DNA of 64,000 nt, taken from Octopus sinensis (lineage: Eukaryota). Every line of letters begins with the position of its first letter. Within the stretch, counting starts at the first letter, position 1. Shown here piece after piece: positions 5,795 through 64,000 of the stretch. Position numbers and translations under genes: made by a program. The stretch spans positions 17,112,001-17,176,000 of the forward strand of contig NC_043007.1 of NCBI RefSeq assembly GCF_006345805.1, in the 5' to 3' direction. The notes beneath the pieces were generated by a model. It made no database searches. It was given only the letters and a program-made list of their open reading frames with translations, and was not told the DNA's origin.

Positions 5795-6097
5795 CTCTAA
5801 CCCATGCCAACATGGGGAAAAAAGATCTGACAAAAAAACAAAAGAAAAGCGTAATATATTATGTACTATACTGTGAATATATATTATGAATAGTTATATT
5901 GTCTTTTGTTTCACACACACACTTTTGATCCATGGTTGTTAGTTCGACAAAATATATTTTGTTTTGTCTGAGCCATGGGTGAACAAAATATGGACTAACA
6001 ATTATGGATCATATGTTTATTCACTCTCAGACTTATCTTTGAGTTTTTCATTCTAAATGACATAACTTCTTTAAACTTGTCACCTCCTGAAATATAT

Positions 6098-6300
6098 ATA
6101 ATAGTATTTTATAAGCTTAAAACTTATAAGCGATCACTGTGCAATGACTAAAGAAAATAATCTAATAATGGGGCATATAAGCCCTTGACAGAAAACCTAC
6201 CTTTTTTTGTTGAGGGCTTGTATACCCCATTATTAGACTATTTTCTTTTGTCATTGCATGGTGATCGCTTATAAGCTTTAAGCTTATAAAATACTATTAT
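6098..6300. repeat. Long inverted repeat (~95 bp arms)
   Basis: ataatagtattttataagctta...gcccttgaca / tgttgagggc...taagcttataaaatactattat. Confidence 0.9.
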
Positions 6301-6579
6301 TATTATTTACAGAATTGTAAAAATCGCTTCTAGGGATTATAATTTTATATGACTTAATAGTTGTCACTGTTTAGTTATGTATTTAGGAGTGGCTATAATT
6401 TACATAGGGTAAATGTGTTTGAAAGTTGTGGTTTCTTTGGTTTGTTTCTTCCCAAACAACACTTATTTTATTGCTGTTGACACTGCCAGATTGAGTGGTA
6501 CTGTCCAGGTGTTGAAACCATAATGATATCCATGGGACAGCTGATGATGGTATGGCTGTTTTTGTATATGTGGAATAGT

Positions 6580-14218: not shown

Positions 14219-15029
14219 ACATGCGTGCGTGAGAAAGCTGTTAAATTTCACTTGTCATTGGATGTATTATGCATGCATGTATGTGCGTGTGAGAGAGAGA
14301 GACAGAAAGCTGTTAAAGTTGGTTATCATTGGATAGTGTCCATGTGAGAGAGACAGATAGAGAAAGAGAGGTCATTGGATATAATGTGTGAGTATGTGTG
14401 TGAGAGATGGAAATAGAGAGAGCTGTTAAATTTGGTTATCATTGGATGAAATGTGTGTGTGATATAAACAACTAGTTGTCATTGAAAATGTGTGTGTCTA
14501 GCAAAATGCAAGTGTGTGACTGGATTAAATGTGTAACTTATATTTGTATCTGTTAATTAGTTGTAGCTTACTACAGTTGTGTCAGTGGATGCAGGGTATA
14601 TGTCTGTATGTATGTATGTGTGTATGACTTTTAATTGCTGTTTTGTCACAGGTTGTAGTGAAGCACCTGATGGAATGTCGGAACTATTAGTGATCATTAT
14701 CGTGTTGTAAGGAATGTTATTTGGCCATATTTCATCACCATTTCTTGTTGATTGCTCCACCTCCTTTGCACTTCATCATCACTGCCATAGTGCCAATTAT
14801 AAACAAAGACAGCCAGGACAATAAACCCTCGTCTTCATCTAAATTGCATGATCACAAGTATCACTATTGAAACCAGTTTGGTTTTCATCTTAAAGAAGTT
14901 TGCATGTTTATGGTTTAGGTTGGTGAACAGTTCGTATATAGGAGTGTTGATCACTACTAATCAATTTCATGTGTATTTCTTTTTTATTTAGAATTTTCAC
15001 TTGCAGGAGGGTATTTTAGATTCTCTTAT

Positions 15030-15590
15030 CTATCTATTCATCCGTCTGTCTGTCCACGTCTGTCTATCCATATGTCTGTTCATATTTCTATCTATCCACC
15101 TATCCGTTCGTCTGTTTGTCTGTCTATCCACCTATCCATTTGTCTGTCTGTCTATCCACCTATCCATTTGTCTGTCTGTCTGTCTATCCACCTATCCATT
15201 TGTCTGTCTGTCTATCCACCTATCCATTTGTCTGTCTGTCTGTCTGTCTATCCACCTATCCATTCATGTCTGTCTGTCTATCCACCTATCCATTTGTCTG
15301 TCTGTCTGTCTATCCACCTATCCATTTGTCTGTCTGTCTATCCACCTATCCATTTGTCTGTCTGTCTGTCTATCCACCTATCCATTCATGTCTGTCTGTC
15401 TATCCACCTATCCATTTGTCTGTCTGTCTGTCTGTCTATCCACCTATCCATTTGTCTGTCTGTCTATCTACCTATCCATTCATGTCTGTCTGTCTATCCA
15501 GTTATCCATTCATGTCTATCTGTCTATCCAGTTATCCATCCGTCTGTTTGTCTATCTGTCTATCCACCTATCCATTTGTCTGTCTGTCTT
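15030..15590. repeat. Compound minisatellite (tctatccacctatccatttgtctgtctg)n
   Basis: 28-36 bp units built from TGTC/TATC tetramers; explains ORFs at 15001-15885. Confidence 0.95.
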
Positions 15591-18500
15591 TTCATATGTT
15601 GGTCCATCCATATATGCCAGTCATTTGTCTAACCTGTTTCAAACGAATATATCTATCTATCTTGCAATCTATCTGTCTACCTATCTATCAATCACTTTAT
15701 TTAATGATGAAGTCTGTTCATTCCTCCAGAAAGTGCTTCAGCTGTCTTATCACCAAGATTACCTACTCATTAAATTATTATGGTTGGTTATTTTATGGAC
15801 ACTTTGTACCCTTAATGAAATCCTCAGTCAGAATCAGAGTAACACTATATCTAGCAGGCTCCTAATCCAATTTCCATTTGCTTGATTTTGCTCGCTAAGC
15901 TTGATCACCCTGAGGCTATAATGGAAGATAATTTGCTAAGTGCTGTGCAGCGGGATTGTGAAAGTGAACCACATAAACCCCATTGCTGTGCACCCACATG
16001 TGTGCATATATGTACATGTGTATATATGCATGTATGTATACATAGAACAGCTCTTTTATAAAATGTCACCTTGAAAACAAAGCTATCACTAATTTCTTAG
16101 AAGTATATGAAGGATTTCTTTTTTGTATTTTTGTATTTCGGAATGGTCATTTTGCCAGTTTAGCCAATAAAAACACACACTATATATTTGGTGTTACTTT
16201 GCTTCAGCGTTATTTATTTTTTACATTAATCTTAATCTTATTTCGGCCAGAGTTCTTTCGTCACACTCCTGTATTTTTTGTTTTTATGTTAAAAACTACC
16301 TAAGGTGTCATGCAGTGGGACTGAACCTGGAACTTTTAACTTATGAAGTGAATTTCTTTACGATATAACTATGCTTGTGTTTATAGGTGTGTGTGCGTGT
16401 GGGGAGAGGATGGATGTGTGGGTATGTCAGTGGTATAATGGTGGCGTTCAGATTACACTCTCAAGACAGAATTTAGATGTATGTATTTGTTTCATTTTCC
16501 TTGAGTCAAACAGACATTTACCGTTTGTTTGTTTGTTGAGTGAATCACTCACCACCTTAATTATTTTATCCCTAAAATACTTGTCAAGATTGGAATTGCT
16601 TGAACTGTTTTTATACTGACCTGCCAACTTGACCCTCAGTCCCCCCCTATTACAATCCCTGTATTAAAAAGCATTCCTATTTAACTCCTTAGTATTTAGA
16701 TTACCTTGTTATAGTGCTTATTTATTCACATTGCTTTCATTTAATCATGTATTATCTTGTGGCTTCAAGATTTTATTTGCTTATTTTTAAAGTGACATTG
16801 TAGGTTAGGTATGAGAAGGCAGATCTGACCAGTTTTACTTAAAATGGGTTGAATATTTGAGCCAGATATGACTGTTTAAATGCTAAAGTGTCAACCCATT
16901 TGTGACTAGATTTTTAGCAAAATACATTGTCTATCGATGCCTGTGACCATTTACAAGGATCCCAAGACTAGTGGGAAGGAAGGAAAAAGATATCCTTTTC
17001 TCTTCTAGGAACAAGGCCCGAAATTTTGGGGAAGGAGGCCAGTCAATTAGATTGACTCCAGTATGCAACTGGTACTTAATTTATCGACCCTGAAAGGATG
17101 AAAGGCAAAGTCGATCTTGGTGGAAGGAAGAAGATGTCCTTAAACCAGAGACATAGTCAGTATACTAGCAACCTAGTGGACTCTGCTAAGGACATTCATG
17201 GCCCCAGGTGATGGTTTTAAACTAGATAGCAGTCTGTAGCAGGATTTGAAGTTTGACCACAAAAAACCTGGAAGAGATATAGCAAAGCATTCTGGTCCTA
17301 CATTCATTCTTATAGTTTTGCCTGGACTGGTTACCTTTTTATCAAAGTTGACTTTGGCTGGATTTGAACTCAGAACCAGAGAGAGTGAGTCAGTCATTAG
17401 TGTCAGATAGAAAACCTTGGGGTATTTGTTTTGACTAAATGTCATCAAATTCTTGATTATTTTCCGAATATCAGGAAACAACTGACTTTGTCATTTTTAA
17501 GCTGCTTGCTGAGATATAAATTAATAAAAGGTACTTCAATGAAATTATAAAGGAAGGTTTCAATCTAAATATTGAATACTTGATGCTACTTTGGTATGTA
17601 ATCTATATGTCATGAAATTGCTTTGGTATGCAATCTACACTTTATATTGTGATCTACAATAAAAGTTATAATTATCAAGAACAAGGAATGCACCTGTATC
17701 GGTTTCAAGAGAATGTCTGGTTAGAGAGTGTGAAACATAAGTCTTAATAATAAATGTGTAAAATGTACAAAAATTTTGATTATGTTTTTACTTTTCTAGC
17801 TGATGTTTGTTCAATTCGCCCATAAAATTAGTAAACTTGTTTCAAATCTGCTGCCACTTAAGGATTATTTAAAAAAAAAAAAAAAAAAGTAAATCGGTTC
17901 TAGGGTCAATTTGTTTGACTAAAACCCTTCAAGGTGATGGCTCAGCATGGTTGCAGTCAAATGAGAGAAACAAGTCAGACAAAAGATTAGCTGACTGTCT
18001 AATCTTCAAGTCCTCAAGTTAACAATCTTGTTATTCTTCATTGATATTCTTCTAGGATGTTTACAACCACTCACCTTAAGTTTTTTTTTTTTTTAACCTT
18101 TGGATTAATGTTAACTTGTATGAAGTGTCTCATTTAAAGTGCACATCACTGCAATAACATCAATGTTCGTTTGCATGAATTAATTTTACCTTTAATGAGA
18201 CATAACAATTTATTTATTTAAAAAATAATTTTTCTACTGTTCTTGCTTTTAACAATGTTACCTACCTAGATCTGTCGTTATCTTTTAACCTGGTTTAAAT
18301 ACTCTTCTCAAACCATTGCCGCTCATGTTCATTGTACACCATTTCTCTTCCCTCTTTTTCTAAATTGTTTCGCTCTCACTGCTTCTCTATCTGTGTAAGA
18401 GGAATGTAATTTAAATGCAAGCCAAAAGTAATGTTTAATCAATGAAAATAGGAATTATATACATGTGTGTGTGTGTATGTGTGTCACACATATATACTTC

Positions 18501-20718: not shown

Positions 20719-21172
20719 AATACAGTTCTATATTTAAGAGATGAGGAATTATTTACATTCGACTGATATGCCCACGGGCATATGGCGTAGTGGTTAAGAG
20801 CGCGGGCTACTAACCCCAAGATTCTGAGTTCGATTCCAAGCAGTGACCTGAACTATAATAATCATAATCATCGTCGTTTAACGTTCGCTTTCCATGCTAG
20901 CATGGGTTGGACGGTTTGACTGTGGGCTGGTGAACCAGATGGCTGCACCAAGCTCCAGTCTTGATCTGGCAGAGTTTCTACAGCTGGATGCCTTTCCTAA
21001 CGCTAACCACTCCAAATAATAATAATAATAATATCGAAGAATACCTTAGGAATGAGAACTCAGGTTCGAAATTTCCCCAAGACACCTGAAGAAGGCTGGA
21101 GGGTATATCAGCCAAAACGTTGTTTTAACAACAAACAAGATGAGGACAAATATCTATCGAATGTAAATAATG
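20719..21172 (+). mobile_element. Penelope-like insert with hammerhead-like motif, carrying two nested SINE fragments
   Basis: 12 bp TSD tacttcaaagct (20707-20718, 21173-21184); short inverted repeat attatttacattcga / tcgaatgtaaataat; ctgaaga-a-ggctg..cagcc-aaaacgtt at 21086-21121. Confidence 0.7.
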
Positions 21173-26099: not shown

Positions 26100-27732
26100 C
26101 CCTACACACACACACACGCGCGCACACATTCCAAGTTTATTCCAAGTGTCAAGCCTTTCTGTTTTGCTCCTGCCAAATTCCTAGTCCCTGGTTACAGTGT
26201 CTATTAATTTCTTCAGGCTTTCATTTAACAAAGTTAAGTCATTTGGAAGATTCTGTTGGAACAGGGAGAAGGTGTCCGATAGAAGCAATATCAACCAATT
26301 ACCATTGTTAAGAGGTTTGGTTAATGTCTTGAGAAAGTGAAAATTACTTTTATTCCTTGGTTGATATGTCTGTATGAAAGAGTAGCTGCACTCTGTGTTT
26401 CAGTATGAGATTGGCACTTTAATTATCCATCTTCTATGTAATATATTGTTGCTGATTAGTAGAGCAGATAAAACTATTGCTTTGTTACAGATAGCTACCT
26501 TGTTCTTTCAATTGGTTAAATCATTCATTCAGATAATGTGTGTGTGATAATTACTACATTGTGAAGAATTCTGAACGTCTGTGACTTAATCATGTGTTTT
26601 GTTACATAATTAATTAATTCATTAAAGTCATTAATATTTTCCTTTCCATGAATTACTGTAGTCCAAGAGCCACTGCTTGATTGGAATTTCTGAAGAGAGA
26701 GAGAAAGAGAGATGTTACCATAAATGGTGTTGGATAAGTACACATACTAGTGTTGGGGATATGATTGTTTCAGTTCCTGGAAGTGATGCTAGTCTATCAG
26801 AAGTAGCGTTTTCAAAATATCTGGGACCTATTTCTTCAACAGTAGAATGATCCGAATCAAGTAGAATGAAGTATCTTGTCCAACAGTTTTGAACTCCTGA
26901 TCCACCAGCTAGTAATTCAATACATTACCCATAGAGCCAATCTGTCTGGCACATTGGTTTCCTACATTGGTGCAAACCCTCAAATTTAAGGGAAGGGTGT
27001 AGTTGAATAAATTAACTTTAGTACTTGACTGATACCTATTTTAACCCTTTCGTTACCAAACCGGCTCTGGCTCTAAGTACAAATGTCTTGCTTTCATAAG
27101 TTTTGAATTACTATCTTCCACCAAACCTTAGTCACAATTTATGTTCCTAACACTAGCTTAATGATGACTAAATTATTTTACTAAATTCTTTGTTATATTT
27201 AAAGTAATTGAAAAAAAACACAGAGCATCTCAAAATAAATACAGTAATGAAAGGGTTAATGAATACCTCACCCACCTAACGAGAACAAAAGGTAAAATCA
27301 ACTCAACAAAGTTTCAACTGAAAATGTGAAGGAACAACTATCTCAACAGTCTGTCATTTCTGCTAATCTTCTAACATAAAGGAATATGAAATGATATAGA
27401 TGGATATAAATAGTTCTTTACATACACACTATTTAAGCAATAACAGCTTGGAGTCATTCAAAAACATACAAAAACTTAACTTCACTTAAATACTTATTTG
27501 GTGTCAAAATTTTCATTGCACCGACTGCAATCTGGTCACAAACAGAGCTCTGTTGTAACTGAGTTGCAGTGGGAAGATTTTGGTGAAAATTTTGACACCA
27601 AATAATAAATGTTTAAGTGAAGTTAAATTTTGTGTGTTCTTGAATGTCTAATATGTGCCTTCAATACTGTAATTGTTAAACAGACTGTCTAGGATCAAAT
27701 CATTTTCCAATTAAGTACATCTCTGACAGTCT

Positions 27733-28460: not shown

Positions 28461-29258
28461 ATGGTGACAATAGCGGTAGTGATATTGTTACAAGATCATC
28501 ATCAATATTATCACCACTGCTACCTAAAGACGAAATTTTGATACAATTGTTAGTAAAATTCTCTTAGCTGGTTGGTATTCCTTCCCTTTAAGAATATATT
28601 CTGGTTATAATTTCTAAGCAATGTATCTCACAATATACTTCTGCCTCAATTTGTATTGATTCAGGGAAAACAATATCTTGTTTAAATTAGTTTTGTGCAT
28701 TGTAACTGAACTGAAGAAAGAGGGTCAATAGAGGAATCTGGCCCCTGTCTGTTTATCCATCAGTGTTTCAGTTATCTACACATCATCTCCATCCATGTTT
28801 CACATTTCATTTGGCATGCTGTTTTCTTTGCATGTGTTCTTTCTTTTCATTTTGTGTGTGTGTGTGTTTTTTGGTTGTAAATGGTTTTCTTATAAAAGCT
28901 GTAAATTTAATATTTTTTCAGGAGAACAGGTTGGGTAGATGGGTGTTATCAGATTGTACGATGCTCAGGTTTTTTTTCTAAAAACGTTAGTGATTTTAGT
29001 GAAATGAATCTGCTATACAATCAAGGATTGAAACTGGATCACTTTACTTGCCTATGGCTTTATTCTTCTGTGTTTGATGTATTATCTGCTAATAATTTTC
29101 TTTTATTTTTAAGCATGTGTATTTCACTTACTCTCTCTCTTTCTCTACATTCTCCCTGTATTACACACGCACACACTCTCTCTCTCTCCCTCTCTCTCTC
29201 TCTCTCACAAGAGTGAGCTATTATTGATTAAATAACTATTAATTATATACAAATATAT

Positions 29259-29678
29259 GCGCAGGAGTGGCTGTGTGGTAAGTAGCTGGCTTACCAACCA
29301 CATGGTTCTGGGTTCAGTCCCACTGCGTGGCACCTTGGGCAAGCGTCTTCTGCTATAGCCTCGGGCCGACCAAAGCCTTGTGAGTGGATTTGGTAAATGA
29401 AAACTGAAAGAAGCCCATCATATATATGTATATATATGTGTGTGCTTGTATGTTTATGTGTCTGTGTTTGTCCCCCTAGCATTGCTTGACAACCGATGCT
29501 GGTGTGTTTATGACCCCGTCACTTAGTGGTTCAGCAAAAGAGACCGATAGAATAAGTACTGGGCTTACAAAGAATAAGTCCTGGGGTTGAGTTGCTTGAT
29601 TAAAGGCGGTGCTCCAGCATGGCCGCAGTCAAATGACTGAAACAAGTAAAAAAAAAAAAAAAAAAAAAAGAAAAAAAG
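29259..29678 (+). mobile_element. SINE family A, full length with poly(A)
   Basis: Colinear with 50177-50592. Confidence 0.92.
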
Positions 29679-30079
29679 ATGTTATGTTGGTGACCCCTTG
29701 GAAAACAAAATACAGAATTCATTCAAGCATCTGATATGAATTATTGTTAAAATGATTGATTTTTCACACTTATAACCACATCTTTATATATGAAACATTT
29801 TCTAACGTCTACATTTAAACTCTCATCCAATCAGTTCGATCTCAGATATGTCTGGATATGTATCTAGGACCACACCAAATTCCAAACAAAAAGTGTTTAT
29901 TTATAGACAAAGCGTACTAACATTACTATTCACTAAGCTACTGACACAAGTAATATTCTGACTCAATTCGACTTCAAAAATTATGACAGTGCTGATGACT
30001 GTACCCCAGCATGATCCTAACACATTGGCTGGATCCACTAAAAGAGTACCTATCCAAATACTATAAAAGACCTTTTTTT

Positions 30080-30481
30080 TTTTTAACTTGTTTCAGTTAT
30101 TTTGACTGTGGCCATGCTGGAGCACCGCCTTTAATCGAGCAACTCGACCCCGGGACTTATTCTTTGTAAGCCCAGTACTTATTCTATCGGTGTCTTTTGC
30201 CGAACCGCTAAGTGACGGGGGACATAAACACACCAGCATCGGTTGTCAAGCGATGTTGGGGGGACAAACATACATGCACACACATATATATACATATATA
30301 TACATATATATATATATATACGACGGGCTTCTTTCAGTTTCCGTCTACCAAATCCACTCACAAGGCTTTGGTCGGCCCGAGGCTATAGTAGAAGACAATT
30401 GCCCAAGGTGCCATGCAGTGGGACTGAACCTGGAACCATGTGGTTGGTAAACAAGCTACTTACCACACAACCACTCCTGCA
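30080..30481 (-). mobile_element. SINE family A, full length
   Basis: Reverse complement of 29259-29650. Confidence 0.92.
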
Positions 30482-30589
30482 CCTACAAATTCTTTTCATA
30501 AAAATTAATGGCTATATAGCAAAAGGATTGAGACTATAATATTCTAAATTATTCTTAGCCATGTGATTTAAGAAACCTTGAATTTAAGA

Positions 30590-31038
30590 AGCTGGGTCGT
30601 CGAAGTGAACACTGGCAGAGCACCAGTCGGCATCTTTTACGGTCGGAACTACGACGGTATCTGATTGTCTTCAAACCTCCAACTTTCGCTCTTGATTGAG
30701 GAAAATGTGCTTGCCACACACCGTCGCTGCAGTGCGTCTTGCGATGATCCAAGAATTTCACCTCTAACGTCACAATAAGAGTGGCCCCGATTGCTCCCTT
30801 CGATCATTGCCTTGTCGTGAACGGAGACCAATGGATGACGTGCGGACGAGGCCATTTTCCATCATTCCATGCCTTTTGTATGCAAGCCGGTGGGGCTCAC
30901 TCTGAGCACTCTAATTTTTTCGCAGTGAACGTACCAGCCGCCTCGGACACTCAACGAAGAGCACCCTTGTAGGAACCGTGCGGACCGAAACAACCAGGAG
31001 GTGGGCGCGTTACCGCAACATGAACAGCGATGCCCGAC
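30590..31038 (-). pseudogene. Dispersed 18S rRNA fragment (about V4-V5 region)
   Basis: GC-rich island containing reverse complements of conserved SSU motifs: agtcggcatc..ggtcggaactacgacggtatctgat, tccaagaatttcacctcta, cactctaattttttc; only ~450 bp, no rDNA context. Confidence 0.9.
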
Positions 31039-31725
31039 GATGACTGTACCCTGGCATGATCCTAACACACTGGCTGGAACCACTAAAAGAGTACCTATCC
31101 AAATACTATAAAAGATTCAACACGGCCCTCTGACCTATCAAATTCTATACCTAAAAATTAATGGATCGAGACTAATATTCTAAATTATTCTTAACCATGT
31201 GATTTAAGAAACCTTTCTTCTCAAATTTTAATATCTCACTTTTTACCCCTCACTCTTTTGTCTGCTCAAGACTGCCTATGATGCAAACCCTTTCATTTTC
31301 AAAATGTTCTTGTTTAAATTAAAATCTTCTACCCTAATTTTCTGTAAGAATCTTTTGTTTTGAAAAATATCTTCCAAAGTCAAGTTTAATAATGAAAAAT
31401 TTATCTTCCTAAATCTCTCCGCAATCTTATTTTCAAAATTAATTGAAACATTTAAGCATTTGTATTTCATGACTGTCATGAAATTTTTTTTTGTCTATTA
31501 AATTTTTTTATACAAGTTTATTTTCCCCAGAAGATTTTTTTTTTTTCTTTTTTTCCACAGAAATAATTTCCTTCAGAGTTCAGCAGTTCTGAAGATTATT
31601 TTTCTCTCATTTCCTCCTGATCTTTTGATGTTTTTTTAATTTTATTTATTTAATCTGTATGCGTTTCTTGACACTTCTAGCAAATCCTTTAATCTCTCTT
31701 AATAAATGTTGTTTCAATTTTTCAG

Positions 31726-37867: not shown

Positions 37868-38002
37868 GTTAGTAATGCTGTGTGGCTCTGTGTGCATGCA
37901 TGTGCCATGCTTTAGGATGCATCCTTTCGCCAGTCTTGGGAGCCAAACACTTGTTCCTGTATCACCTTTTGTTTTCATTACATTCTCATAAATATATTTT
38001 AC

Positions 38003-38400
38003 GGAGATGTACTTGCATAGCAAGTGACTTGATCTGAGATCGTGTGCTGGAACGTAAACAATTGCAGTGTGGAAGGTGTTTATAAGCCATTTAAGAAACA
38101 CACAAAAACCGTTAGATTCACTTCAACATTTAAATTTGATTTGTCAAATTATTTTCGTTGTTTTGAGACTGCGACCTGTTCCCTGACAAAATTCCAAGAT
38201 GCAGCACAAAGTTTTGTCAGGGAACAGGTCGCGGTCTGAAAGCGACGAAAATATTTTGACAAATCAAATTTAAATGTTGAAGTGAATCTAACGGTTTTTG
38301 TGTGTTTCTTAAATGGCTTATAAACACCTTCCACACTGCAATTGTTTACGTTCCAGCACACGATCTCAGATCAAGTCACTCGCTATGCAAGTACATCTCC
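38003..38400. mobile_element. Palindromic Penelope-like insert with two inverted hammerhead-like motifs
   Basis: ~189 bp arms (38003-38191 / 38212-38400), 20 bp loop, ctcataaatata repeated on both flanks. Confidence 0.75.
38212..38263 (+). ncRNA. Minimal type I hammerhead-like motif, G3-C8 core variant
   Basis: tttgtca-GGGAACA-g-gtcgc-ggtctgaaa-gcgac-GAAA-a-ta-t-t-t-tgacaaa. Confidence 0.55.
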
Positions 38401-40006
38401 ATAACTCATAAATATAGTAAGTAGTAAAAGTATTGTTTCTGGTGCCAGGACCCATGGGGTCAGTTACTCAATTTCCCTGGCATATAAGTGACTGAGATCA
38501 CAACACTCCCCTGGAGGGGACGCTAGTTAGTCGCAGGGTTACTTACTTACAACTGCGTGGACTGGAGTGCTCACGAAGGCCATGCACTGCTCAGTCCAGG
38601 AATCAAAACTCTGATCTTGTGTTCATAAGTGCAAGACTCTTAACTCCTAGGCCACATGCCTTCATCCATAAATATGGTAGTTGTTGCTTCATTATTGCTC
38701 TTTTCTCTTTTGTGGTGGAATAAGTTCACAATGATTGTATTACCTGTTACACCTCTCACTTGCTTTTAACACAGGCGTAGATGATGTTGAAGTAATCAGT
38801 AGTGTTGGTCATTGAATTTAGGAAGGACTTGTGTACTGTTTGATAAATAAAACTTTTTAATGGTGGTGGTAGTTAGCTAAAAGTCAATCCTGATTGAGCA
38901 GACCTAACATCAAAAGTATTCTGGCTGTGGACATTTTTTCTCTCTTCAGACCTATATGTCGAGGACTGCAATGAGATGGCAGGGTGTTAGGGTATGATTT
39001 ATGGGAGATTTTGGTGCAGAACTGGCTGTGTGGTAAAATGTTTGCTTTACAACCACATGCTTCTGGGTTCACTTCCACTGTTGTGCCATCATGGGTAAAT
39101 GTCTTTTATTATAGTCCCAGGCCAACTAGTCCTGTGAGTGGATTTGACAAAAGGAAACTGAAAGAAGCCTGTTCGTGTATGTGTGTGTTACTGTCTCTTT
39201 GCTTGGACTTCATGTGATAGTTGTAAATAAGTGTCACTATCATATAAGTGGTGTCCTTCACTTCCAAACTTTCATAAAACAATGTCTGGTCATAGGGAAG
39301 CTTTTCCCTTCCTGGGAACTGGCAAGTTTTGGCAAAAGGAAGTATAATCCATCCGTGGAAAATTCACCTCAGCGAATTCTGTCTGACCCATTTGAGCATG
39401 GAAAAATGGACATTAAAACAACCACAATGATGATGGTGATGATTAGCTGGTGGTGTTAATTAGAATCTTGGTTCCTGCTGTTGTTGCTTAGACGAGTGCT
39501 CTGCATCCTTTTTTCACTTGTAGTACACCTACATTCTTTTCAAAATTTGACAGCGCACCTGAACTAAAGATATAACTAAAAGTATAGGGAAAGAAATTAT
39601 ATTCAGGTTACTGTGGCACACCTAGCATCATTTTGTGACACATCAGTGTGCCATGGCATACCAGTTGCACAGCTCTGGCTTAGACCAATGCAAACCTATG
39701 AGCAAAAGTGTTCTAGCTATGACCTTCCCATGATCACAATAACCAATGTCTTTTAAAGACTGTAGGTGTGATTTGATGGGGACCTGGCTGCTATTTCTAA
39801 CAAGTTGGTAGTGATAATAATATTCACCACTGAGCCCAGGTCAGCTGTAATTCAGTAAACATATTCTCAAAGTTGTTCCAACTATGACCATCCTGTATTT
39901 TAATTAAACATAATTTATCTAAGACTATATTACCTTCCCTTCTTCCACAGCCGTGTTATTCAACTGAAAACCTCATCCTTAAGTGCTGTCTCTCTTATTA
40001 TTTCAG

Positions 40007-40161: not shown

Positions 40162-41371
40162 GTAATGTCTCCTTCTTTGTTCTATCCATAGATGAAACCT
40201 TGATTGTGTAATGAGATTTTTCTTTTCATATATATATAGGGAGAGTTTACGAAAAAAACAAAAGACGAAGACAGGTGGTGTACAAAACAAACTGATGTAT
40301 TAGTATAACGCTCAGGAATAGAAAAAGTATTTTACGTTTCGAGCCTACGCTCTTCTACAGAAAGGGACACAGAAAAAACAAGGAGAGAAAAAAGGAATTA
40401 TTTATTTATTTATGCGCCCTTTTCAAGCCTATCCAGGCTCATAGGCCTGGTTTCTGTGGCTTATGTGTTCCCCCCAGCAGGACGGGACGCCAGTCCATTG
40501 CAGCGTTACTCAAGAAACTGGAAGAGAGAGTGAGAGAAAGTTGGGGCGAAAGAGTACAACAGGGGTCGCCACCACCCCCTGCTGGAGTCTCGTGGAGCTT
40601 TAGGTGTTTTTGCTCAATAAACACACACAACATATTAACACACAGCTGTTGTTGAAAAATATATTTAACTATATTGTAATTATAAAAAACAGTATTGGTA
40701 TTTTCTGCAGGCTTTGTTTCCATGATAAACTTGAGATACCTCAACAAAATATAATTTCAAACTTTACTTTCCTTGACAAAAGATAGGTCAGTATATAAAA
40801 CTGTTTTTTGCAGTGAAAATTCATGGAATTTTGAATGAAAGGTGTTTATAATCACCCATTTTGAATAAGATCAGTAATATATATTCAGTATATTGAAATA
40901 ATGAGTTCCTATGCTTTATGGTGTTGCATAATTTTCTTCATATATTTGTCAAATCTATCTTAGCTGATGGTATATTCCGAACAGTGTCTCAAACACATGC
41001 ACATTAATAAACATAATATATGTTTTCAAGAGCTACTATTAGTTTCATGCGATGTAAACAGTTCAGACAGCATTTTTAAACATGTCTGGTGTCTCTGCAC
41101 AATCCTCAGGCAAAACATGTAAAAAACAGGATATATAATGACTGTGAGATCAACCATGCTTTTAATCACAACTGAAATAGTTTTGGTTCTGAAACCCACA
41201 CTTTCTTCCGAAGAGTTATCTCTCAAATTATTATAGATCAAAGATATAAAGATGTATTCACATGTAAAATTTAATTCGTATGGTTTCTGTTATGCCGTGA
41301 CTGCAGCTGTAAAAGCTTCAGCCTCTGCTTTCGGCTTTACTGATATTGTGACTTGTGATTCTCTTTTTCAG

Positions 41372-45719: not shown

Positions 45720-47228
45720 AAGCAGTACAGATCTCTATTATTATATATTTTTGTTTATTCAGCATGTATGCTAGATAATTTCTATTGAATCATCTAATTT
45801 GCATTTATTATTATTATTATTATTAAGGTGGTGAGCTGGTAGAATTGTTAGCTTGCTAGGCAAAATGCTTAGCAGTATTTTGCCTTTCATCCTTTTGGGG
45901 GTCAATAAGTTAAGAACCAGTGAAAAACTGCAGTCAGTGTAATTTACTAGTCTTCTCCCCACAAAATTCCAGGCCTTGCGCCTTGAGCAGAAAGGATTAC
46001 TATTGAAGCAGCATTAATATTAGATTAGTGAGTTTTCAAATTTTTGTTGCAATCAGTACCTTAGTTGGCTTACTTCAGCAATATCTCCATAAATTGCCTT
46101 TTTAAAGTTTAAATACTTGGCATGTCTGTAGAGAAAATCCTGCAACATCCTTAGTGGCTTACCGCAACACTCCGACCAAACACACACATGATGCTTTTGT
46201 TTCCGACATTTTTTTTTTTTTCCAATGTGATGAAAATATTTATTGTTACTGAATCGTTATTAATGCTTTATTTACTTAAGGCACTCAGAAAGTTTGCTAT
46301 TTATAATAAACTTTGTTTTACTAAGGGAAGTGGTGTTTCATTTGGTTTAAACATTGTGACAGTGTTAATGTTAATGGCTGAATTATTTGGAAGCTGGGCT
46401 ACCTTTGGAAAACCTGTTTTAATAATTCTTTATATATATATATATGTGTGTGTATATGCCACTCAAGTAGCCTGTTATTCTGGAGTTTCCACTGCATGCA
46501 AGTGCCTTTTTAGACAACTCAGACTGAGCCATGTCTACCTTGTTTCAAGAAGCAGTCATGCTAAGAAAACTCCAGGGTACTAGACCCGCTCAAACAACCT
46601 ACTGCACTCTACATTTGTATTGAGTACTTCTCCGGATCATTACCAACAACAGTGTGTGTGTGTGTATGTATATATATATATATATATATATATTTTAGGT
46701 TGTAATCTTAAGCAATGCTAGGTTTGTATCGCTATATGTGATATTTCCATCTTGTAGGTTCTTAAATTGTAATGTCCCAGTGCCATACAACAATGCTACA
46801 GAGAGAAAGAGAAAAGCTTTATTTTTTTCCTGAAAGGAGGTACAGCCCTTTTTTTTTTTCTTTCCTCACTACCACTGTCTGTCTTCCAAATAAATTTAAG
46901 GAGACAAAATGATACTGGTCTTGAGCAAACACTATGTGTATTAGCCTTGTGTGTATAATACACCCATATATATATATATATATATCTGTAAACGTAAATG
47001 TAATATGTGACAATTATTCGGTAGTCAAGATAAAAAACTCCGATGGCGTTTTTCCGATGGCCAGATAACTGAAGAGATGGTGGCGTGGATTTCCACCTCA
47101 GCATCCGAAACTCAGAGTTTTATCTTGGCAACTGAATAATTGTCACATCTACAGATAAATTCCTCTATTTACATAATATCAAGGTCTCTTTCTTTCTTTT
47201 GTTATCTTACCGTTTTTATCTATATATG

Positions 47229-56548: not shown

Positions 56549-56961
56549 CATACATACAATACAGATAAAGGGTGAAATATAATTAATTGAATAAAATCAA
56601 CAAATTTCACCAAGTAGTTTTTCAGTATGGAAAGGACCATATTCGGTAAAATTATATATAATTATAACAATGAGGGTCTTTGCAACTTTCGGTATGTGGT
56701 CTAGCAACCTGTTGCAAAGAACCTCATTGTTATAATATATATATATATATATATACTAAGGCATGTTGATTTAACCATGAAATTATTTTTTTTAATTTCT
56801 TAAGATTATCTCCCTTTATTCAGAGTTTCTTAACTGTTATCACAAGGTTTTTATTGTTTGTTTTCCTTCTCTGTCCCCCAACAGAAATTTCAGTAAATTA
56901 AGAATTTACCATGTGTGGCATTCTGTACACCTTCCAGTTGAGTTATATATATATATATATA

Positions 56962-58735
56962 CACACATATATATTCCTTTGTATACCAACGCAAACGTTG
57001 TGGCCATGCTGGGACACCATATATATATACATAGATACATATATATATATATTCCTTTGTATACCAACGCAAATGTTGTGGCCATGCTGGGACACCATAT
57101 ATATATACATATATACATATATATTCCTTTGTATACCAACGCAAATGTTGTGGCCATGCTGGGACACCATATATATATATATACATAAATACACATATAT
57201 ATTCCTCTGTATACCAACGCAAATGTTGTGGCCATGCTGGGACACCATATATATATACATATATACATATATATTCCTTTGTATACCAACGCAAATGTTG
57301 TGGCCATGCTGGGACACCATATATATATACATAATATACATATATATTCCTTTGTATACCAACGCAAATGTTGTGGCCATGCTGGGACACCATATATATA
57401 TACATATATACATATATATTCCTTTGTATACCAACGCAAATGTTGTGGCCATGCTGGGACACCATATATATATACATATATACATATATATTCCTTTGTA
57501 TACCAACGCAATGTTGTGGCCATGCGGGACACCATATATATATACATATATACATATATATTCCTTTGTATACCAACGCAAATGTTGTGGCCATGCTGGG
57601 ACACCATATATATATATACATATATACACATATATATTCCTTTGTATACCAACGCAAATGTTGTGGCCATGCTGGGACACCATATATATATATATATACA
57701 TATATATTCCTTTGTATACCAACGCAAATGTTGTGGCCATGCTGGGACACCATATATATATACATATACATATATATTCCTTTGTATACAACGCAAATGT
57801 TGTGTGGCCATGCTGGACACCATATATATATATACATATATACAATATATATTCCTTGTATACCAACGCAAATGTGTGGCCATGCTGGACACACCATATA
57901 TATATACATATATACACATATATATTCCTTTGTATACCAACGCAAATGTTGTGGCCATGCTGGGACACCATATATATATATATACATAAATACACATATA
58001 TATTCCTTTGTATACCAACGCAAATGTTGTGGCCATGCTGGGACACCATATATATATATATACATATATATTCCTTTGTATACCAACGCAAATGTTGTGG
58101 CCATGCTGGGACACCATATATATATATATACATAAATACACATGTATATTCCTTTGTATACCAACGCAAATGTTGTGGCCATGCTGGGACACCATATATA
58201 TATATATATACATATATATTCCTTTGTATACCAACGCAAATGTTGTGGCCATGCTGGGACACCATATATATATGTATACATAAATACACATGTATATTCC
58301 TTTGTATACCAACGCAAATGTTGTGGCCATGCTGGGACACCAATATATATATATATACATAAATACACATGTATATTCCTTTGTATACCAACGCAAATGT
58401 TGTGTGGCCATGCTGGGACACCATATATATATAATATATATATACATATATATTCCTTTGTATACCAACGCAAATGTTGTGGCCATGCTGGGACACCATA
58501 TATATATATATATATACATAAATACACATGTATATTCCTTTGTATACCAACGCAAATGTTGTGGCCATGCTGGGACACCATATATATATATATACATATA
58601 TATTCCTTTGTATACCAACGCAAATGTTGTGGCCATGCTGGGACACCATATATATTATATATATATACATAAATACACATGTATATTCCTTTGTATACCA
58701 CGCAAATGTTGTGGCATGCTGGGACACCATACATA
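56962..58735. repeat. Minisatellite, 24 units of ~70-80 bp (constant ~45 bp core plus variable TA/CA tract)
   Basis: Core attcctttgtataccaacgcaaatgttgtggccatgctgggacacc counted 24 times; explains all long ORFs at 56890-58853. Confidence 0.97.
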
Positions 58736-59099
58736 CATATATATATATATATATTATATATATACATATATATATATATATAATATATATATATAATATA
58801 TATATATATATATGATTGAGTGGACAGATGAAAGAAAGTGGCACTTGACACAATTGGTAGAAGTTTCAGATTTGGTTCTATGAGTCTGACAAATTTGGTT
58901 CGTTTGGTGAACCTACAAAAATTTTAGTTGCATGAAGCTGAATCAGACTTTTATTAAATGAAATGCATGTATAACATACACACACACACACATATATATA
59001 TAAAGAGTGAAATATAATTAATTTAATAAAATTAATAAATTTCACCTAGTAGTCTATTTTGGTATGGAAAGGACCATATTCGGTAAAAATTATATATCC

Positions 59100-59262
59100 T
59101 TATAATAAAGGGTTATTTGCAACAAGTTGCTTAAACCACATACCGAAAATATTAGAAATAGCAGCCAAATAGGTAATAGTAATGATAACCTATTTGGCTG
59201 CTATTTCTAATATTTTCGGTATGTGGTTTAAGGAACTTGTTGCAAATAACCCTTTATTATAA
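59100..59262. repeat. Near-perfect hairpin (75 bp arms, 13 nt loop)
   Basis: 59100-59174 pairs with 59188-59262 with about one mismatch. Confidence 0.92.
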
Positions 59263-60534
59263 TTATATATATATATATATATATTTGTGTTATTGTATGT
59301 TCAGTAATGCTAGACCACTGGTGTGAAATCGATGTTAATTAAATTAATATCTAATTTCTCACCCTCATTTTAAATTTAAAAATTATATATATATAATATA
59401 TATATACATATATATACATATATATATATATATAGCAGTTTAGGTTCCTCATAAATTTTGTGTTATTATTAGTAAAGAAAATGAATGAATTTAGACAAAT
59501 ATAGACTATACTGAAATAAAATTACAACAATGGATGATACTGTTACTATTAGTTCTTGTACTACTAGCTTAATCTTCGCATTGAACTGTTTTTTTAACAT
59601 TCTCATCTATGCTACGTTGCTTTTGGTTTTATCTCCAACCATTATTCCTGCATGTGTACATTGCATCCAAGAATCAGAGATCAAATCAGTCGAAATGTAG
59701 TATAGATGTAAATATTAAAGTTTTTTTGGGGTTTTTTTTTTCTCTCCAAAGATGAAGTTACTAGTCTGAAAAGTTATATAGTGTTGGATAATAACTGTAG
59801 TTGAAACACAAGCACATACAATCACTTCCTTGTACTTCAGAAGTTTTAAAGAAATTCTATTTTATTTTCCATATGGATACATTGAGTGTACTTTTACCAT
59901 CTTTGCTGTTGGTGCTTGTCTTGATTTCCATTTAGTTCCAGTTCCTTACTCAAAAAGCATTGCAAAAACATTGTTAAAAAACTATTAGTTTTTTTTTTTG
60001 TTTTATTTTTGTCTCCCAACAGCTTTTTCTGTTTCTCATCATAACAACTTTTTTTCTTTTTTTTTTTTCTTTCAGAACATTTTTCACTTCTGTTATGGCT
60101 CAGCCTTGACATTAAATGCTGTAAATAATACTTAAAATATTTCTTTTCTAAAAGAAAAGAGAGAAATAAAAAAATTTTAAAAATCATACATAAAGAAACT
60201 AAAACTAATAAATAATAATGATATACAGAAATATATTAAAAAAAAAAAATTGAGATTAATAAATTTTATGGATAAATGAAAATATTCATCTCCTGAAACA
60301 ATTATGGAATTTTAAATATGGAAACTCAATTCTGAAACAATCAATCATTTATTTTTATTTTATTATAATAATAATTATTATTATTATTTTGACATCTTAT
60401 TCTTATTTTTAATTAGAATTATCACTTTTTTTTTCTTTGTTCAACGCCTCTCAAGTTTTGATGTACAATGCAGTGTCAAATGTAAATAGACTGCTTCCAT
60501 CTAACCAAATGCTTGTGTGTTTTGGAAACATGTG

Positions 60535-60684: not shown

Positions 60685-61063
60685 ACTCTTTTACTCTTTT
60701 ACTTGTTTCAGTCATTTGACTGCGGCCATGCTGGAGCACCGCCTTTAGTCGAGCAAATCGACCACAGGACTTATTCTTTGTAATCCCATTACTTATTCTA
60801 TCGGTCTCTTTTGCCGAACCGCTAAGTGACGGGAACGTAAACACACCAGCATCGGTTGTCAAGCAATGCTAGGGGGACAAACACAAACATATACACACAC
60901 ATAAATATATATATATATACATATATACGACAGGCTTCTTTCAGTTTCCGTCTACCAAATCCACTCACAAGGCATTGGTCAGCCCGAGGCTATAGCAGAA
61001 GGCACTTGCCCAAGATGCCATGCAGTGGGACTGAACTTGGAACCATGTGGTTGATAAGCAAGC
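60685..61063 (-). mobile_element. SINE family A
   Basis: Colinear with other copies; extreme 5' end absent. Confidence 0.9.
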
Positions 61064-61224
61064 TCAGTCCTGGTACTCATGGCTTTTTAATTTTTTAGTC
61101 TAGTACTTTATCAGACTCTTTAGCTGAACTACTAAGTTAACGAGAACATAAACCAATACATGTAAAAGGAGGAGGTGGGTGACAAGCACATACACACAAT
61201 ATACAAGGTGGGCCAAATATATAT

Positions 61225-61590
61225 GGTGCAGGCATGGCTGTGTGGTAAGAAATTTCCTTTCCAATCACATGGTTCCGGGTTCGGTATCACTGTGTGGCAC
61301 TTTGGGCAAGCGTCTTCTACCATCTTGGGCCAACCAAAGCCTTGTGAGTGGATTTGGCAAGTGGAAACTGAAAGAAGCCCATTGTGTGTGTGTGTGTATC
61401 TTTGTCCCCTATTCCTTGACAACTGGTGTTGGTGTGTTTACGCCGTCATAATTTAGCAGTTTGGCAAAAAGACCAATAGAACCAAAAGTTCTAGGCTTAA
61501 AAAACAAAAATTCTGAGGGCAATTTGTTCAGCTAAAACCCTTCAAGATGGTGCCCCAGCATGGCCACAGTCAAATGACTGAAACAAGTAA
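61225..61590 (+). mobile_element. SINE family A, older subfamily
   Basis: ggtgcaggcatggctgtgtgg...gactgaaacaagtaa; flanked by duplicated atacaaggtgggccaaa. Confidence 0.88.
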
Positions 61591-61615
61591 TATATATATA
61601 TATATATATATATAA

Positions 61616-61729
61616 TACAAGGTGGGCCAAAAATCACACACAAAATGAGTTCAATACACATTTGTACATAATGAATAATATAAATAAAATGTCAAATGTC
61701 TTGGTGCGTGACTTTTGGCCCATCCTGTA
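61616..61729. mobile_element. Tc1/mariner-type MITE
   Basis: TA-caaggtgggccaaaaatcac ... gtgacttttggcccatcctg-TA. Confidence 0.8.
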
Positions 61730-62558
61730 TATTGTGTGCATGTGCTTGTCACCCACTTCCCCCTTTTTACATGTATTGGTTTGTTTATGTTCCTCTAACT
61801 TAGTAGTTCACCAAGAGTCTGATAAAGTACTAGATTAAAAAAAAGAAAAAAACAAATAAAAAATCATAAGTACTGTTTTTGATTTATTCAACTGAAACCT
61901 TTCAAGATGGTGCCCCAGAGTGGCCATAGTCCACTGTCTAAAACACTGTCCCTATCTCTGCCTATGTTCCACAGGCTGGACTGGCTGATGGCCAATTCTA
62001 TGAGGTCCTTCTGCAGACAACCTCAATATCACTTGACAACCGATGCTGGTGTGTTTAATTCCCCGTAACTTAGCTGTTCGGCAAAAGAGACTGATAGAAT
62101 AAGTACTAGCCTTACAAAGAATAAGTCCTGGGGTCGATTTGCTCGATTAAAGGCGGTGCTCCAGCATGGCCACAGTCAAATGACTGAAACAAGTAAAAGA
62201 GTAAAGAGTATACTAGGAAGGATTATGGAAGCTCAAAAACCCTGCAAACCAGCAGAAATTTAGAGAGATTCTAATAGAAGCCTCTGATGATAGAGAGAAG
62301 AAGGAAGGGGCATATAACTTAGAGGACAATTGGGAGTTCCCGTGGACAATCTGCTGGAGGCCACTGACCCAATCTGTGGCTGGTGAAAAGTCCCAGCTAG
62401 GTCATCATAAGTGAGAGAATGCCAAATATCAATCATTACAAAATAAAGCTAAAGTGAACGTAAAGTGAACGTTACAAAATGCCAGATATCATCATTACAA
62501 AATAAAGCAAAAGTGAACATAACAGTAATACACGTGTGTTTGATATGGCTATCGTGAT

Positions 62559-63447: not shown

Positions 63448-63825
63448 TATTCTGTTGTGTCTGGGGAGAGTCATTTTCTTTTTGTCCCTTATGATTTAAC
63501 ACACTCACCGGTAAAATTTCCACTTATTTCTTATTTTTATTTTCCTAAAATTTTCGTTGCGCCTTGCAACCTTTTCAATAGTCTTGACTTTGGTGAGCCC
63601 AGGGGATTATAGCAGAAGACACCCAAAGTCATAGCAGAAGACACTTACCCAAAGTGCTGTGCAATGGGATTGAACTTGAAAACTGCTTGGCTAGAAAGTA
63701 ACACTATTGAAAAGGTTGCAAGATGCAGCGAAAATTTTAGGGAAATAAAAATAAGAAATAAGTGGAAATTTTACCGGTGAGTGTGTACAAAAAGAAAATG
63801 ACTCTCCCCAGACACAACAGAATAT
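63448..63825. mobile_element. Palindromic Penelope-like insert with inverted hammerhead-like motifs and SINE fragment in the loop
   Basis: Arms ~63448-63582 / 63703-63825. Confidence 0.7.
63545..63581 (-). ncRNA. Minimal type I hammerhead-like motif, U3-A8 core variant
   Basis: Minus strand cta-TTGAAAA-g-gttgc-aaggc-gcaac-GAAA-a-t-t-t-tag; mirror copy on + at 63704-63740. Confidence 0.55.
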
Positions 63826-64000
63826 GCTTCAACACACGAACTAATATAAAGAATCTTGCAAACAAAATCCAAAAACGAAATTTACAACGTATATATAAAC
63901 AAAAAAATTACAACTATCCTACACTTGTATATGCCATATTTGCTGGTGTATAAGATGCACGTGTGCATAAAACTCACTGGTTTTCCAAGAATATTTTGTG

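Follow-up and report, generated by a model that had tools for sequence, protein, structure and literature searches.

What kind of element left the palindrome at positions 63448 to ~63885 of this stretch of Octopus sinensis DNA, and whether the hammerhead-like motif carried by both of its arms is maintained by selection, are the questions raised by this locus. The window, i.e., the whole stretch of 64,000 nucleotides that was analysed, contains further sites of the same layout that differ at core positions 3 and 8, the two bases that pair in the active hammerhead. The palindrome is probably a head-to-head pair of 5'-truncated pseudo-LTRs of a Penelope-like element (PLE), in which the motif would be a slow self-cutter of the source transcripts, assisted by dimerization or by protein, and the 3-8 pair would have been kept by selection as its identity changed.

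Anatomy of the palindrome

The palindrome extends beyond the span of 63545..63740 quoted for it by the earlier note, and its centre derives from an unrelated repeat. It is composed of the following features.

63448..63592, minus strand: left arm, a 5'-truncated family A pseudo-LTR with a short 3' end and no tail
63572..63578, minus strand: left-arm core U3-U4-G5-A6-A7-A8-A9, predicted cut after 63548
63593..63699, no strand: central spacer, a 107-nt piece of an abundant unrelated repeat with 28 matches in 20 of 101 sequences
63700..63885, plus strand: right arm, a family A pseudo-LTR with a tail of ~60 nt, present on the right side only
63707..63713, plus strand: right-arm core U3..A8, with a stem I of 3 bp and a palindromic stem III (AATT), the cut being predicted after 63737

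On the minus strand, the left arm is ordered as CTA, TTGAAAA (63578-63572), G, GTTGC..GCAAC, GAA, AATT, T (63548), and TAG; on the plus strand, the right arm consists of CTA, TTGAAAA (63707-63713), G, GTTGCA..TGCAGC, GAA, AATT, T (H17, 63737), and TAG. The hammerhead layout with U3-A8 described earlier for both arms was thus read again in each of them. A second copy of the family A palindrome, 96% identical and with the same centre, is located 427 kb away. The arms lie on opposite strands, and since they are antisense to each other and their read-through RNA is predicted to fold into a single long hairpin (~-219 kcal/mol), they cannot be a hammerhead dimer pair. Because this predicted hairpin buries the motif, the copies in the window are likely dead. 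In the family A arms (63499-63512 on the minus strand and 63773-63786 on the plus strand), CCG/GTGAGT resembles a 5' splice site, and an ATG frame downstream of it extends across the tail; introns close to pseudo-LTRs have been described in PLEs.

Other hammerhead-like sites in the window

Arms and repeats of six further families, B to G, were located in the window.

37992..38190, minus strand: left arm of a family B pseudo-LTR, whose G3-C8 core lies at 38183-38177 and whose stems II and III are damaged
38197..38401, plus strand: right arm of a family B pseudo-LTR, with its G3-C8 core at 38220-38226 (GGGAACA, with U4 changed to G here), a stem I of 7 bp, AATATT as stem III, and a cut predicted after 38256
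27455..27539, minus strand: arm of family C, which is related to B and older, with a G3-C8 core at 27539-27533 (GTGACCA), 5' strand of stem I truncated
27585..27677, plus strand: inverted partner arm of family C, truncated inside the hammerhead
16126..16272, minus strand: family G arm, sister of A, truncated inside stem II, family state C3-G8 with C9, absent from the earlier list of sites
21030..21170, plus strand: family D hammerhead-like repeat, C3-G8 core at 21086-21092 (CTGAAGA), G12 gone in this copy
47040..47160, plus strand: family E hammerhead-like repeat, C3-G8 core at 47069-47075 (CTGAAGA), stem II imperfect, stem III longer
40270..40400, minus strand: family F arm, C3-G8 core at 40360-40354 (CTGTAGA) with U6; a different GIY-YIG-type ORF precedes the family F arm in one locus (L097)

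All five of the other cores reported earlier were found at their sites, with reservations: G4 at 38220 is a minor variant (U4 is present in 93 of 97 family B arms), U6 at 40354 is typical of the whole family F (19/19), and the copies at 21086, 27532, and 47069 have lost parts or are imperfect. The literal CUGANGA core is absent from A, B, C, F, and G, the cores being UUGAAAA in A, GUGAACA in B, GUGACCA in C, CUGAUGC in G, and CUGUNGA in F; a CUGANGA search misses A, B, and C, as had been anticipated. The minimal type-I features are present, namely a core enclosed by stems I and II, GAAA, A15.1-U16.1, a non-G at 17, and a palindromic stem III, with a stem I of only 3 bp in A.

The scan was carried out with a strict hammerhead descriptor in which positions 3, 4, 7, and 8 were free. 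It gave four matches in the window, three of them with a Watson-Crick 3-8 pair, against 0.15 matches (0.05 paired) per shuffle in 20 shuffles. In 1 Mb of the genome, sampled as 100 evenly spaced 10-kb stretches, there were 16 matches (nine paired), against 4.0 (1.2 paired) per shuffle in five shuffles. The descriptor missed 21086 (G12 lost), 27532 (5' strand of stem I lost), 40354 (U6), and 47069 (stem II imperfect and stem III longer). An Rfam scan of the window returned 82 matches up to E 5, none of which was a hammerhead, and the single-strand folding z-scores of seven sites were weak (+0.5 to -2.2).

Coding elements upstream of the arms

The complete elements are ordered as reverse transcriptase (RT), CX4-5CxxC linker, GIY-YIG, a UTR of 0.5-1.0 kb, the hammerhead motif, ~130 nt, and a tail of ~55-60 nt. 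Upstream, family A copies pass through CA-rich sequence and then reach a GIY-YIG-type frame and an RT. In 18 of the 30 loci found with the A protein, for which the flank covered was only 1.5 kb, the RT/GIY-YIG ORF of A is followed downstream by an A arm of the same orientation, compared with 0/30 loci of an unrelated Neptune-type endonuclease that served as control; the corresponding counts are 5/10 for B under a strict filter and 11/11 for G. The distance from the stop codon to the hammerhead core is 529-1,043 nt. The B and G frames span 839-1,044 aa and carry RT motifs and a YIG/YVG motif; two open frames of B, of 839 and 1,042 aa, lie 0.9-1.0 kb upstream of the core. Pfam GIY-YIG was above the cut-off in two A frames (E 1.5e-6 for an A frame), the RVT_1 match was weak (E 0.002-0.02), and the Pfam search of two B frames gave no match. 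The element proteins possess two Cys and two His in the endonuclease, DKS, and the CX4-5CxxC linker. Of the earlier proposals, the minimal type-I hammerhead layout and the Penelope link are supported; among the 37 window ORFs of at least 110 aa, a PLE protein was not recognisable by eye.

By protein sequence, family G is closest to A, with an identity of 59-61%, and the best named relative is from Octopus vulgaris. A quick protein tree of 48 rows, composed without named reference proteins, placed (B,(A,G)) together with an SH-aLRT of 99. The RTs of A, B, and G (L345:962-3478, L346:810-3941, and L333:2645-4084) have 131 residues between motifs A and B, compared with 62 in a Neptune-type element of the same genome; public sets contain many relatives at 30-56% identity (138 proteins). 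A young Neptune-type PLE of high abundance (L258:1034-5600) has a frame of 776 aa and a 3' region of more than 2 kb in which a hammerhead was not recognised, and its 3' end is family-H-like. Two neighbouring frames were considered as parents of B and rejected: the Neptune-type ORF that neighbours a B arm in L131, as only 1/30 such loci has a downstream B arm, and the G-type endonuclease beside a B arm in L278, as G's own arm lies between. As for expression, the B arm is covered by contigs from four runs of uncertain kind, and contigs cannot show ends.

Head-to-head pairs are composed of one long and one short arm in 28/33 cases in A, 25/28 in B, and 8/8 in G, counted after overlapping fetches had been collapsed by context, so a few duplicates may remain. 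L218, at one time taken for a tandem, is an inverted pair, and a direct 5' pseudo-LTR (a partial head-to-tail pLTR-ORF-pLTR) was not seen in the few long loci examined. An ORF link was obtained for A, B, and G, whereas family C yielded none. In A, B, and G, this link and the long/short head-to-head pairs, which match published PLE anatomy, identify the elements as truncated ends of autonomous EN+ Penelope-like elements. The element protein would copy the RNA from two start points ~55-60 nt apart, one per target strand, and these would yield a long and a short arm meeting at their truncated 5' ends.

The earlier note had instead proposed a set of non-autonomous ribozyme-bearing retroelements, which would be retrozyme-like. 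Most copies are indeed short and without coding sequence, and animal retrozymes are described as PLE derivatives. The families nevertheless continue upstream into their own ORF at the loci counted above, their 5' ends are variable, and same-strand neighbouring arms in the loci examined are few and irregular (three in A, one in B, and none in G), unlike tandem retrozyme arrays, all of which makes this proposal very improbable. Miniature inverted-repeat DNA transposons (MITEs) would likewise have long inverted arms; here, however, the arm lengths differ by a fixed tail, the centres are variable, arms often occur singly, and the sequence belongs to an RT element as its 3' end, so that the ORF link refutes this origin and its probability is practically negligible.

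Identity of the 3-8 pair across families

Within the truncated PLE ends, the 3-8 pair was followed genome-wide by patterns with positions 3 and 8 free and all other positions exact, and its states were counted by hand on the first 100 matches listed for each family. The arm totals are lower bounds because the other positions had to match exactly. Family A has at least 2,906 arms with U3-A8 in 89 of the first 100 listed; family B, at least 5,463 with G3-C8 in 92 of the first 100; and family G, at least 2,735 with C3-G8 in 97 of the first 100, while the reversed-pattern controls for the three families gave 0 matches in the genome. The claim of three Watson-Crick solutions in separate families is therefore borne out. 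In the examined loci, found partly with core-containing queries, the family state was present in 94/99 arms of A, 88/97 of B, 21/26 of C, and 20/21 of G; the corresponding counts in D, E, and F are 11/12, 5/5, and 18/19. In family C, the core is G3-C8 as in B, and stems I and II have changed on both sides between B and C. The small family H has U3-A8 in three of its four arms with a core and U3·G8 in the other; it was observed at L306:103-480, L157:38-190, and L106:3685-3804 as a hammerhead-like repeat, with a Neptune-like endonuclease upstream in L106.

Metagenome relatives carry the motif after the ORF in 4/9 cases (by scan and by eye), three with C-G and one with U-A. L358 and L360 have C-G, L357 has U-A with C9, and L356 has C-G with U15.1-A16.1, the last seen by eye only. 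The motif was not recognised in the other five, of which two end inside the ORF, one ends just past the match, and two have flank. L356:2517-5100 also has a tandem arrangement, with a stop-free frame of 1,632 residues, a long repeat-rich N-terminal region, and the hammerhead-like motif. By parsimony, C-G would be ancestral, and three lineages (A, B/C, and L357) would have left it, each for another Watson-Crick pair. A different 3-8 pair in each family suggests that the predicted self-cutting fold has remained under selection.

A drifting core in which the pairs match by chance is an alternative to selection on the fold. In a genome rich in AT, C-G turns into U-A by only two transitions; copies with a wobble or with G·G occur, and few independent switches have been sampled. 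On the other side, G-C requires two transversions, and all three lineages that left C-G are dominated by Watson-Crick pairs, while independent change would give mostly one-sided states; the rough estimate is at most 1 in 3 per lineage and ~0.04 for three. Moreover, the stems are still paired, although the proteins are only 52-61% identical. Drift is accordingly regarded as quite improbable.

Older and younger layers within families

Family A comprises layers of different age. The older layer, defined by diagnostic bases, has 341 arms by pattern, and the first 100 listed consist of 72 U-A, 20 U·G, two C-G, and six other states. In the young layer, G8 was found in 14/1,529 arms (Fisher p 4e-19). 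When a downstream diagnostic was added to the older layer, a hand count of 79 arms gave 31 U·G, 34 U-A, six C-G, five C·A, and three other states, and with a loop diagnostic added, G8 was present in 25/27 arms (hand count). It follows that a U3·G8 source element was amplified before the young U-A burst. The path of A likely ran from C-G through U·G to U-A, which is the simplest order because the sister family G has G8. Its direction would follow from that comparison, as the G8 layer and the middle A8 layer are not told apart by age: the pairwise likeness is 83.7% among eight G8 arms, 83.5% among three middle-layer A8 arms, and 90.8% among eight young arms.

Changes within families follow a different course. 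Twelve double changes were found in A, eight of them C-G with ~6-7 expected, mostly on older diagnostic bases, and C3 is no commoner on G8 (6/37) than on A8 (5/41) backgrounds (p 0.75). In B, two of 11 double changes are paired, compared with ~8 expected; compensation within families was rejected, and in B the double changes match neutral decay. Purine changes at C8 of B are to G in 77 of the first 100 listed of 221, while on the position 3 side C3 accounts for 21/58. Genome-wide, C8 to G is ~3x commoner than C8 to A and ~8x commoner than G3 to C in all subfamilies of B, with local clusters on C20 and C30. Arms with G3·G8 make up ~3% of B (115 vs 3,328), and an ancestral G3·G8 layer was rejected since such arms spread over all loop types. 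Core conservation is close to that of the flank in the young families (0.964 vs 0.940 in A and 0.986 vs 0.990 in G), family C being the exception (0.938 vs 0.838); a core barely better kept than its flank is expected of dead copies.

Covariation is confined to comparisons between families; within B the double changes follow neutral decay, and the U3·G8 lineage of A spread as well, so the earlier claim of selection on the catalytic fold goes further than these results.

Fold, predicted cutting, and start points of the copies

Stem III is a loopless palindrome (AATT or AATATT). The active fold, and with it cutting, would therefore take two ribozyme copies joined through stem III, with exchange of their stem I strands. 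By nearest-neighbour calculation, which ignores tertiary contacts and help from protein, the double hammerhead lies above two monomers by 6.0 kcal/mol in A, 2.0-3.4 in B, and 2.8 in G, and by 4.5 and 7.1 in canonical examples. Family A has a stem I of only 3 bp and a stem III of 4 bp of AU.

The 3-8 pair is part of the active conformation of the hammerhead, according to the published account of the PAc PLE of Anolis, in which an engineered C3G/G8C swap partly restores cutting (Frangieh 2024, PMC11167929). In one mutational scan, only the G:C swap rescued activity in the 3-8 region, and other double mutants remained low. These rescues by G3-C8 favour B and leave U-A and U·G open. A9U is reported from functional natural ribozymes, and A6C is reported to have low activity. 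In PAc, the reported hammerhead mutants had no effect on insertion in vitro, uncut RNA was the main insertion substrate, and cutting required the element protein (Frangieh 2024, PMC11167929).

In the unbiased sample and the window taken together, 0/18 arms of A and B start within 5 nt of the predicted cut, and 11/18 start within 25 nt upstream of the core. That no arm starts at the predicted cut implies that templates intact at this site predominated, in line with PAc in vitro. In L091-L190 and the window, the 5' truncations of A and B cluster 7-22 nt upstream of the core (11/18 arms), just before the CA-rich UTR; this cluster is possibly a reverse-transcription stop or a joining hot spot.

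Against strict catalysis stand the fixed C9 and U6, the spread of the U3·G8 lineage, and the 0/18 copies starting at the predicted cut. C9 was found in 96 of the first 100 listed arms of G and U6 in 19/19 of F, both as fixed core changes without compensation. The fold might therefore persist for another reason than cutting, for instance to bind the element protein or to stall reverse transcription, with a structural 3-8 pair and vestigial catalysis. Arm starts upstream of the core with none at the cut, fixed C9 and U6 variants in successful families, uncut RNA as the main insertion substrate in vitro (PMC11167929), and the non-cleavage roles left open in the published text of Cervera 2014 (PMC4209133) favour such a role. 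It is opposed by G5, G12, A13, and A14, which are the majority state in seven of the seven families examined (A6 in six), by the place of the 3-8 pair in the active conformation (PMC11167929), and by the changes at position 9 reported in functional natural ribozymes; on this balance it is unlikely. The slow, assisted self-cutter in PLE source transcripts remains the preferred reading.

Comparison with known elements

The Schistosoma Cercyon and other metazoan PLE hammerheads share with the octopus families the type-I layout, a loopless palindromic stem III, an unpaired base following position 9, G10.1-C11.1, a predominance of solo or opposite-strand copies, and the same UUGAAAA core (PMC4209133). 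Agreement with the published consensus in the bulged base 9a, in G10.1-C11.1, and in the palindrome of stem III argues for the PLE reading (Cervera 2014, PMC4209133). The novelty of U3-A8 in Penelope hammerheads was overstated earlier: it had already been reported from Schistosoma PLEs with ~1,300 hits, the UUGAAAA core appears in the supplement, and a two-copy fold via stem III was proposed in the same work and found to be weakly active (Cervera 2014, PMC4209133). By contrast, the G3-C8 and C9 cores and the wobble intermediate were not found in the parts of that work that were searched, and GUGAACA, GUGACCA, and CUGAUGC had 0 hits in the searched parts of its supplement. Natural U3-A8 hammerheads are another case of natural 3-8 covariation; at this pair, U3-A8 alone is named in the section covered, without a family history (Perreault 2011, PMC3088659).

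The Neptune and Nematis EN+ PLEs are similar in their single RT and GIY-YIG ORF, CX2-5CxxC linker, CCHH-type residues, inverted truncated 5' copy, one-sided tail, and many copies ending at (TA)n (Craig 2021, PMC8557442). Compared by features, the tail is ~55-60 nt here and 30-40 nt there, and DKS here replaces DKG there. An insertion between RT motifs A and B is described for N-terminal-EN PLEs and not for canonical ones (Craig 2021, PMC8557442). The Hydra clade, which lacks CCHH and has DKT and a CxCX5C linker, was not matched, as two Cys and two His, DKS, and CX4-5CxxC occur here. PAc, a Poseidon element of Anolis, likewise derives its tail from two RT start points (Frangieh 2024, PMC11167929); its G-C swap is engineered and its ORF starts inside the hammerhead, whereas G3-C8 here is natural in a high-copy family. 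Non-LTR retrozymes possess a type-I hammerhead related to PLE pseudo-LTRs and form tandem non-coding arrays, unlike the inverted truncated ends of coding elements described here (Li 2026, 10.64898/2026.07.22.740005). Further background is given in PMC6765202, PMC3884650, PMC6155905, PMC9901934, and PMC10085705.

For natural G3-C8, engineered swaps or nothing were found in the literature covered, which did not include Lünse 2017, Przybilski and Hammann 2007, and Martick and Scott 2006; nothing on octopus PLE hammerheads was found in the literature searched. Lünse 2017 is reportedly a large-scale survey of PLE hammerhead variants. The statement that natural G3-C8 is unreported is a weak one because the supplements of Lünse 2017 or one Cervera file may hold it. 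The U3-A8 core is already published, and what is added here is a G3-C8 family whose ORFs are nearly intact, together with the wobble layer and the range of core variants within a single clade.

Significance for hammerhead evolution

The role of hammerheads in PLEs is an open matter in the sources available, as one clade thrives without them (Craig 2021, PMC8557442) and cutting is dispensable for insertion in vitro (PMC11167929). Sister families that keep the 3-8 pair while both bases change, with a wobble layer between, provide comparative evidence for a selected active fold. Matched constructs of natural origin, and ORFs that are nearly intact, are available from these families. In this one genome of 2.72 Gb, the arms of A, B, and G outside the CUGANGA descriptor exceed 11,000, so hammerhead censuses undercount. 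A tentative, bolder reading is that the genome holds a fossil record of a ribozyme tertiary core pair stepping from C-G through U·G to U-A, together with the first natural G3-C8 in a high-copy and recently active retroelement, and that one Penelope clade tolerates G3-C8, U3-A8, C9, and U15.1-A16.1, all missed by standard searches. As part of this tentative reading, the tolerance would likely stem from support of the fold by the element protein and from cutting that is tuned to a low rate.

Other features of the window

Near-perfect palindromes with 7-nt centres and AT-rich flanks are present at 6090-6308 and 59091-59271, and the hammerhead layout was not recognised in them. Large inverted pairs built of common repeats occupy 29256-30485 and 60690-62205, and long minisatellite-like arrays at 56890-58670 and 14960-15630 yield spurious open frames. 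On the minus strand, 30557-31245 holds a degenerate piece of eukaryotic 18S rRNA that contains an insertion (Rfam, 175 bits).
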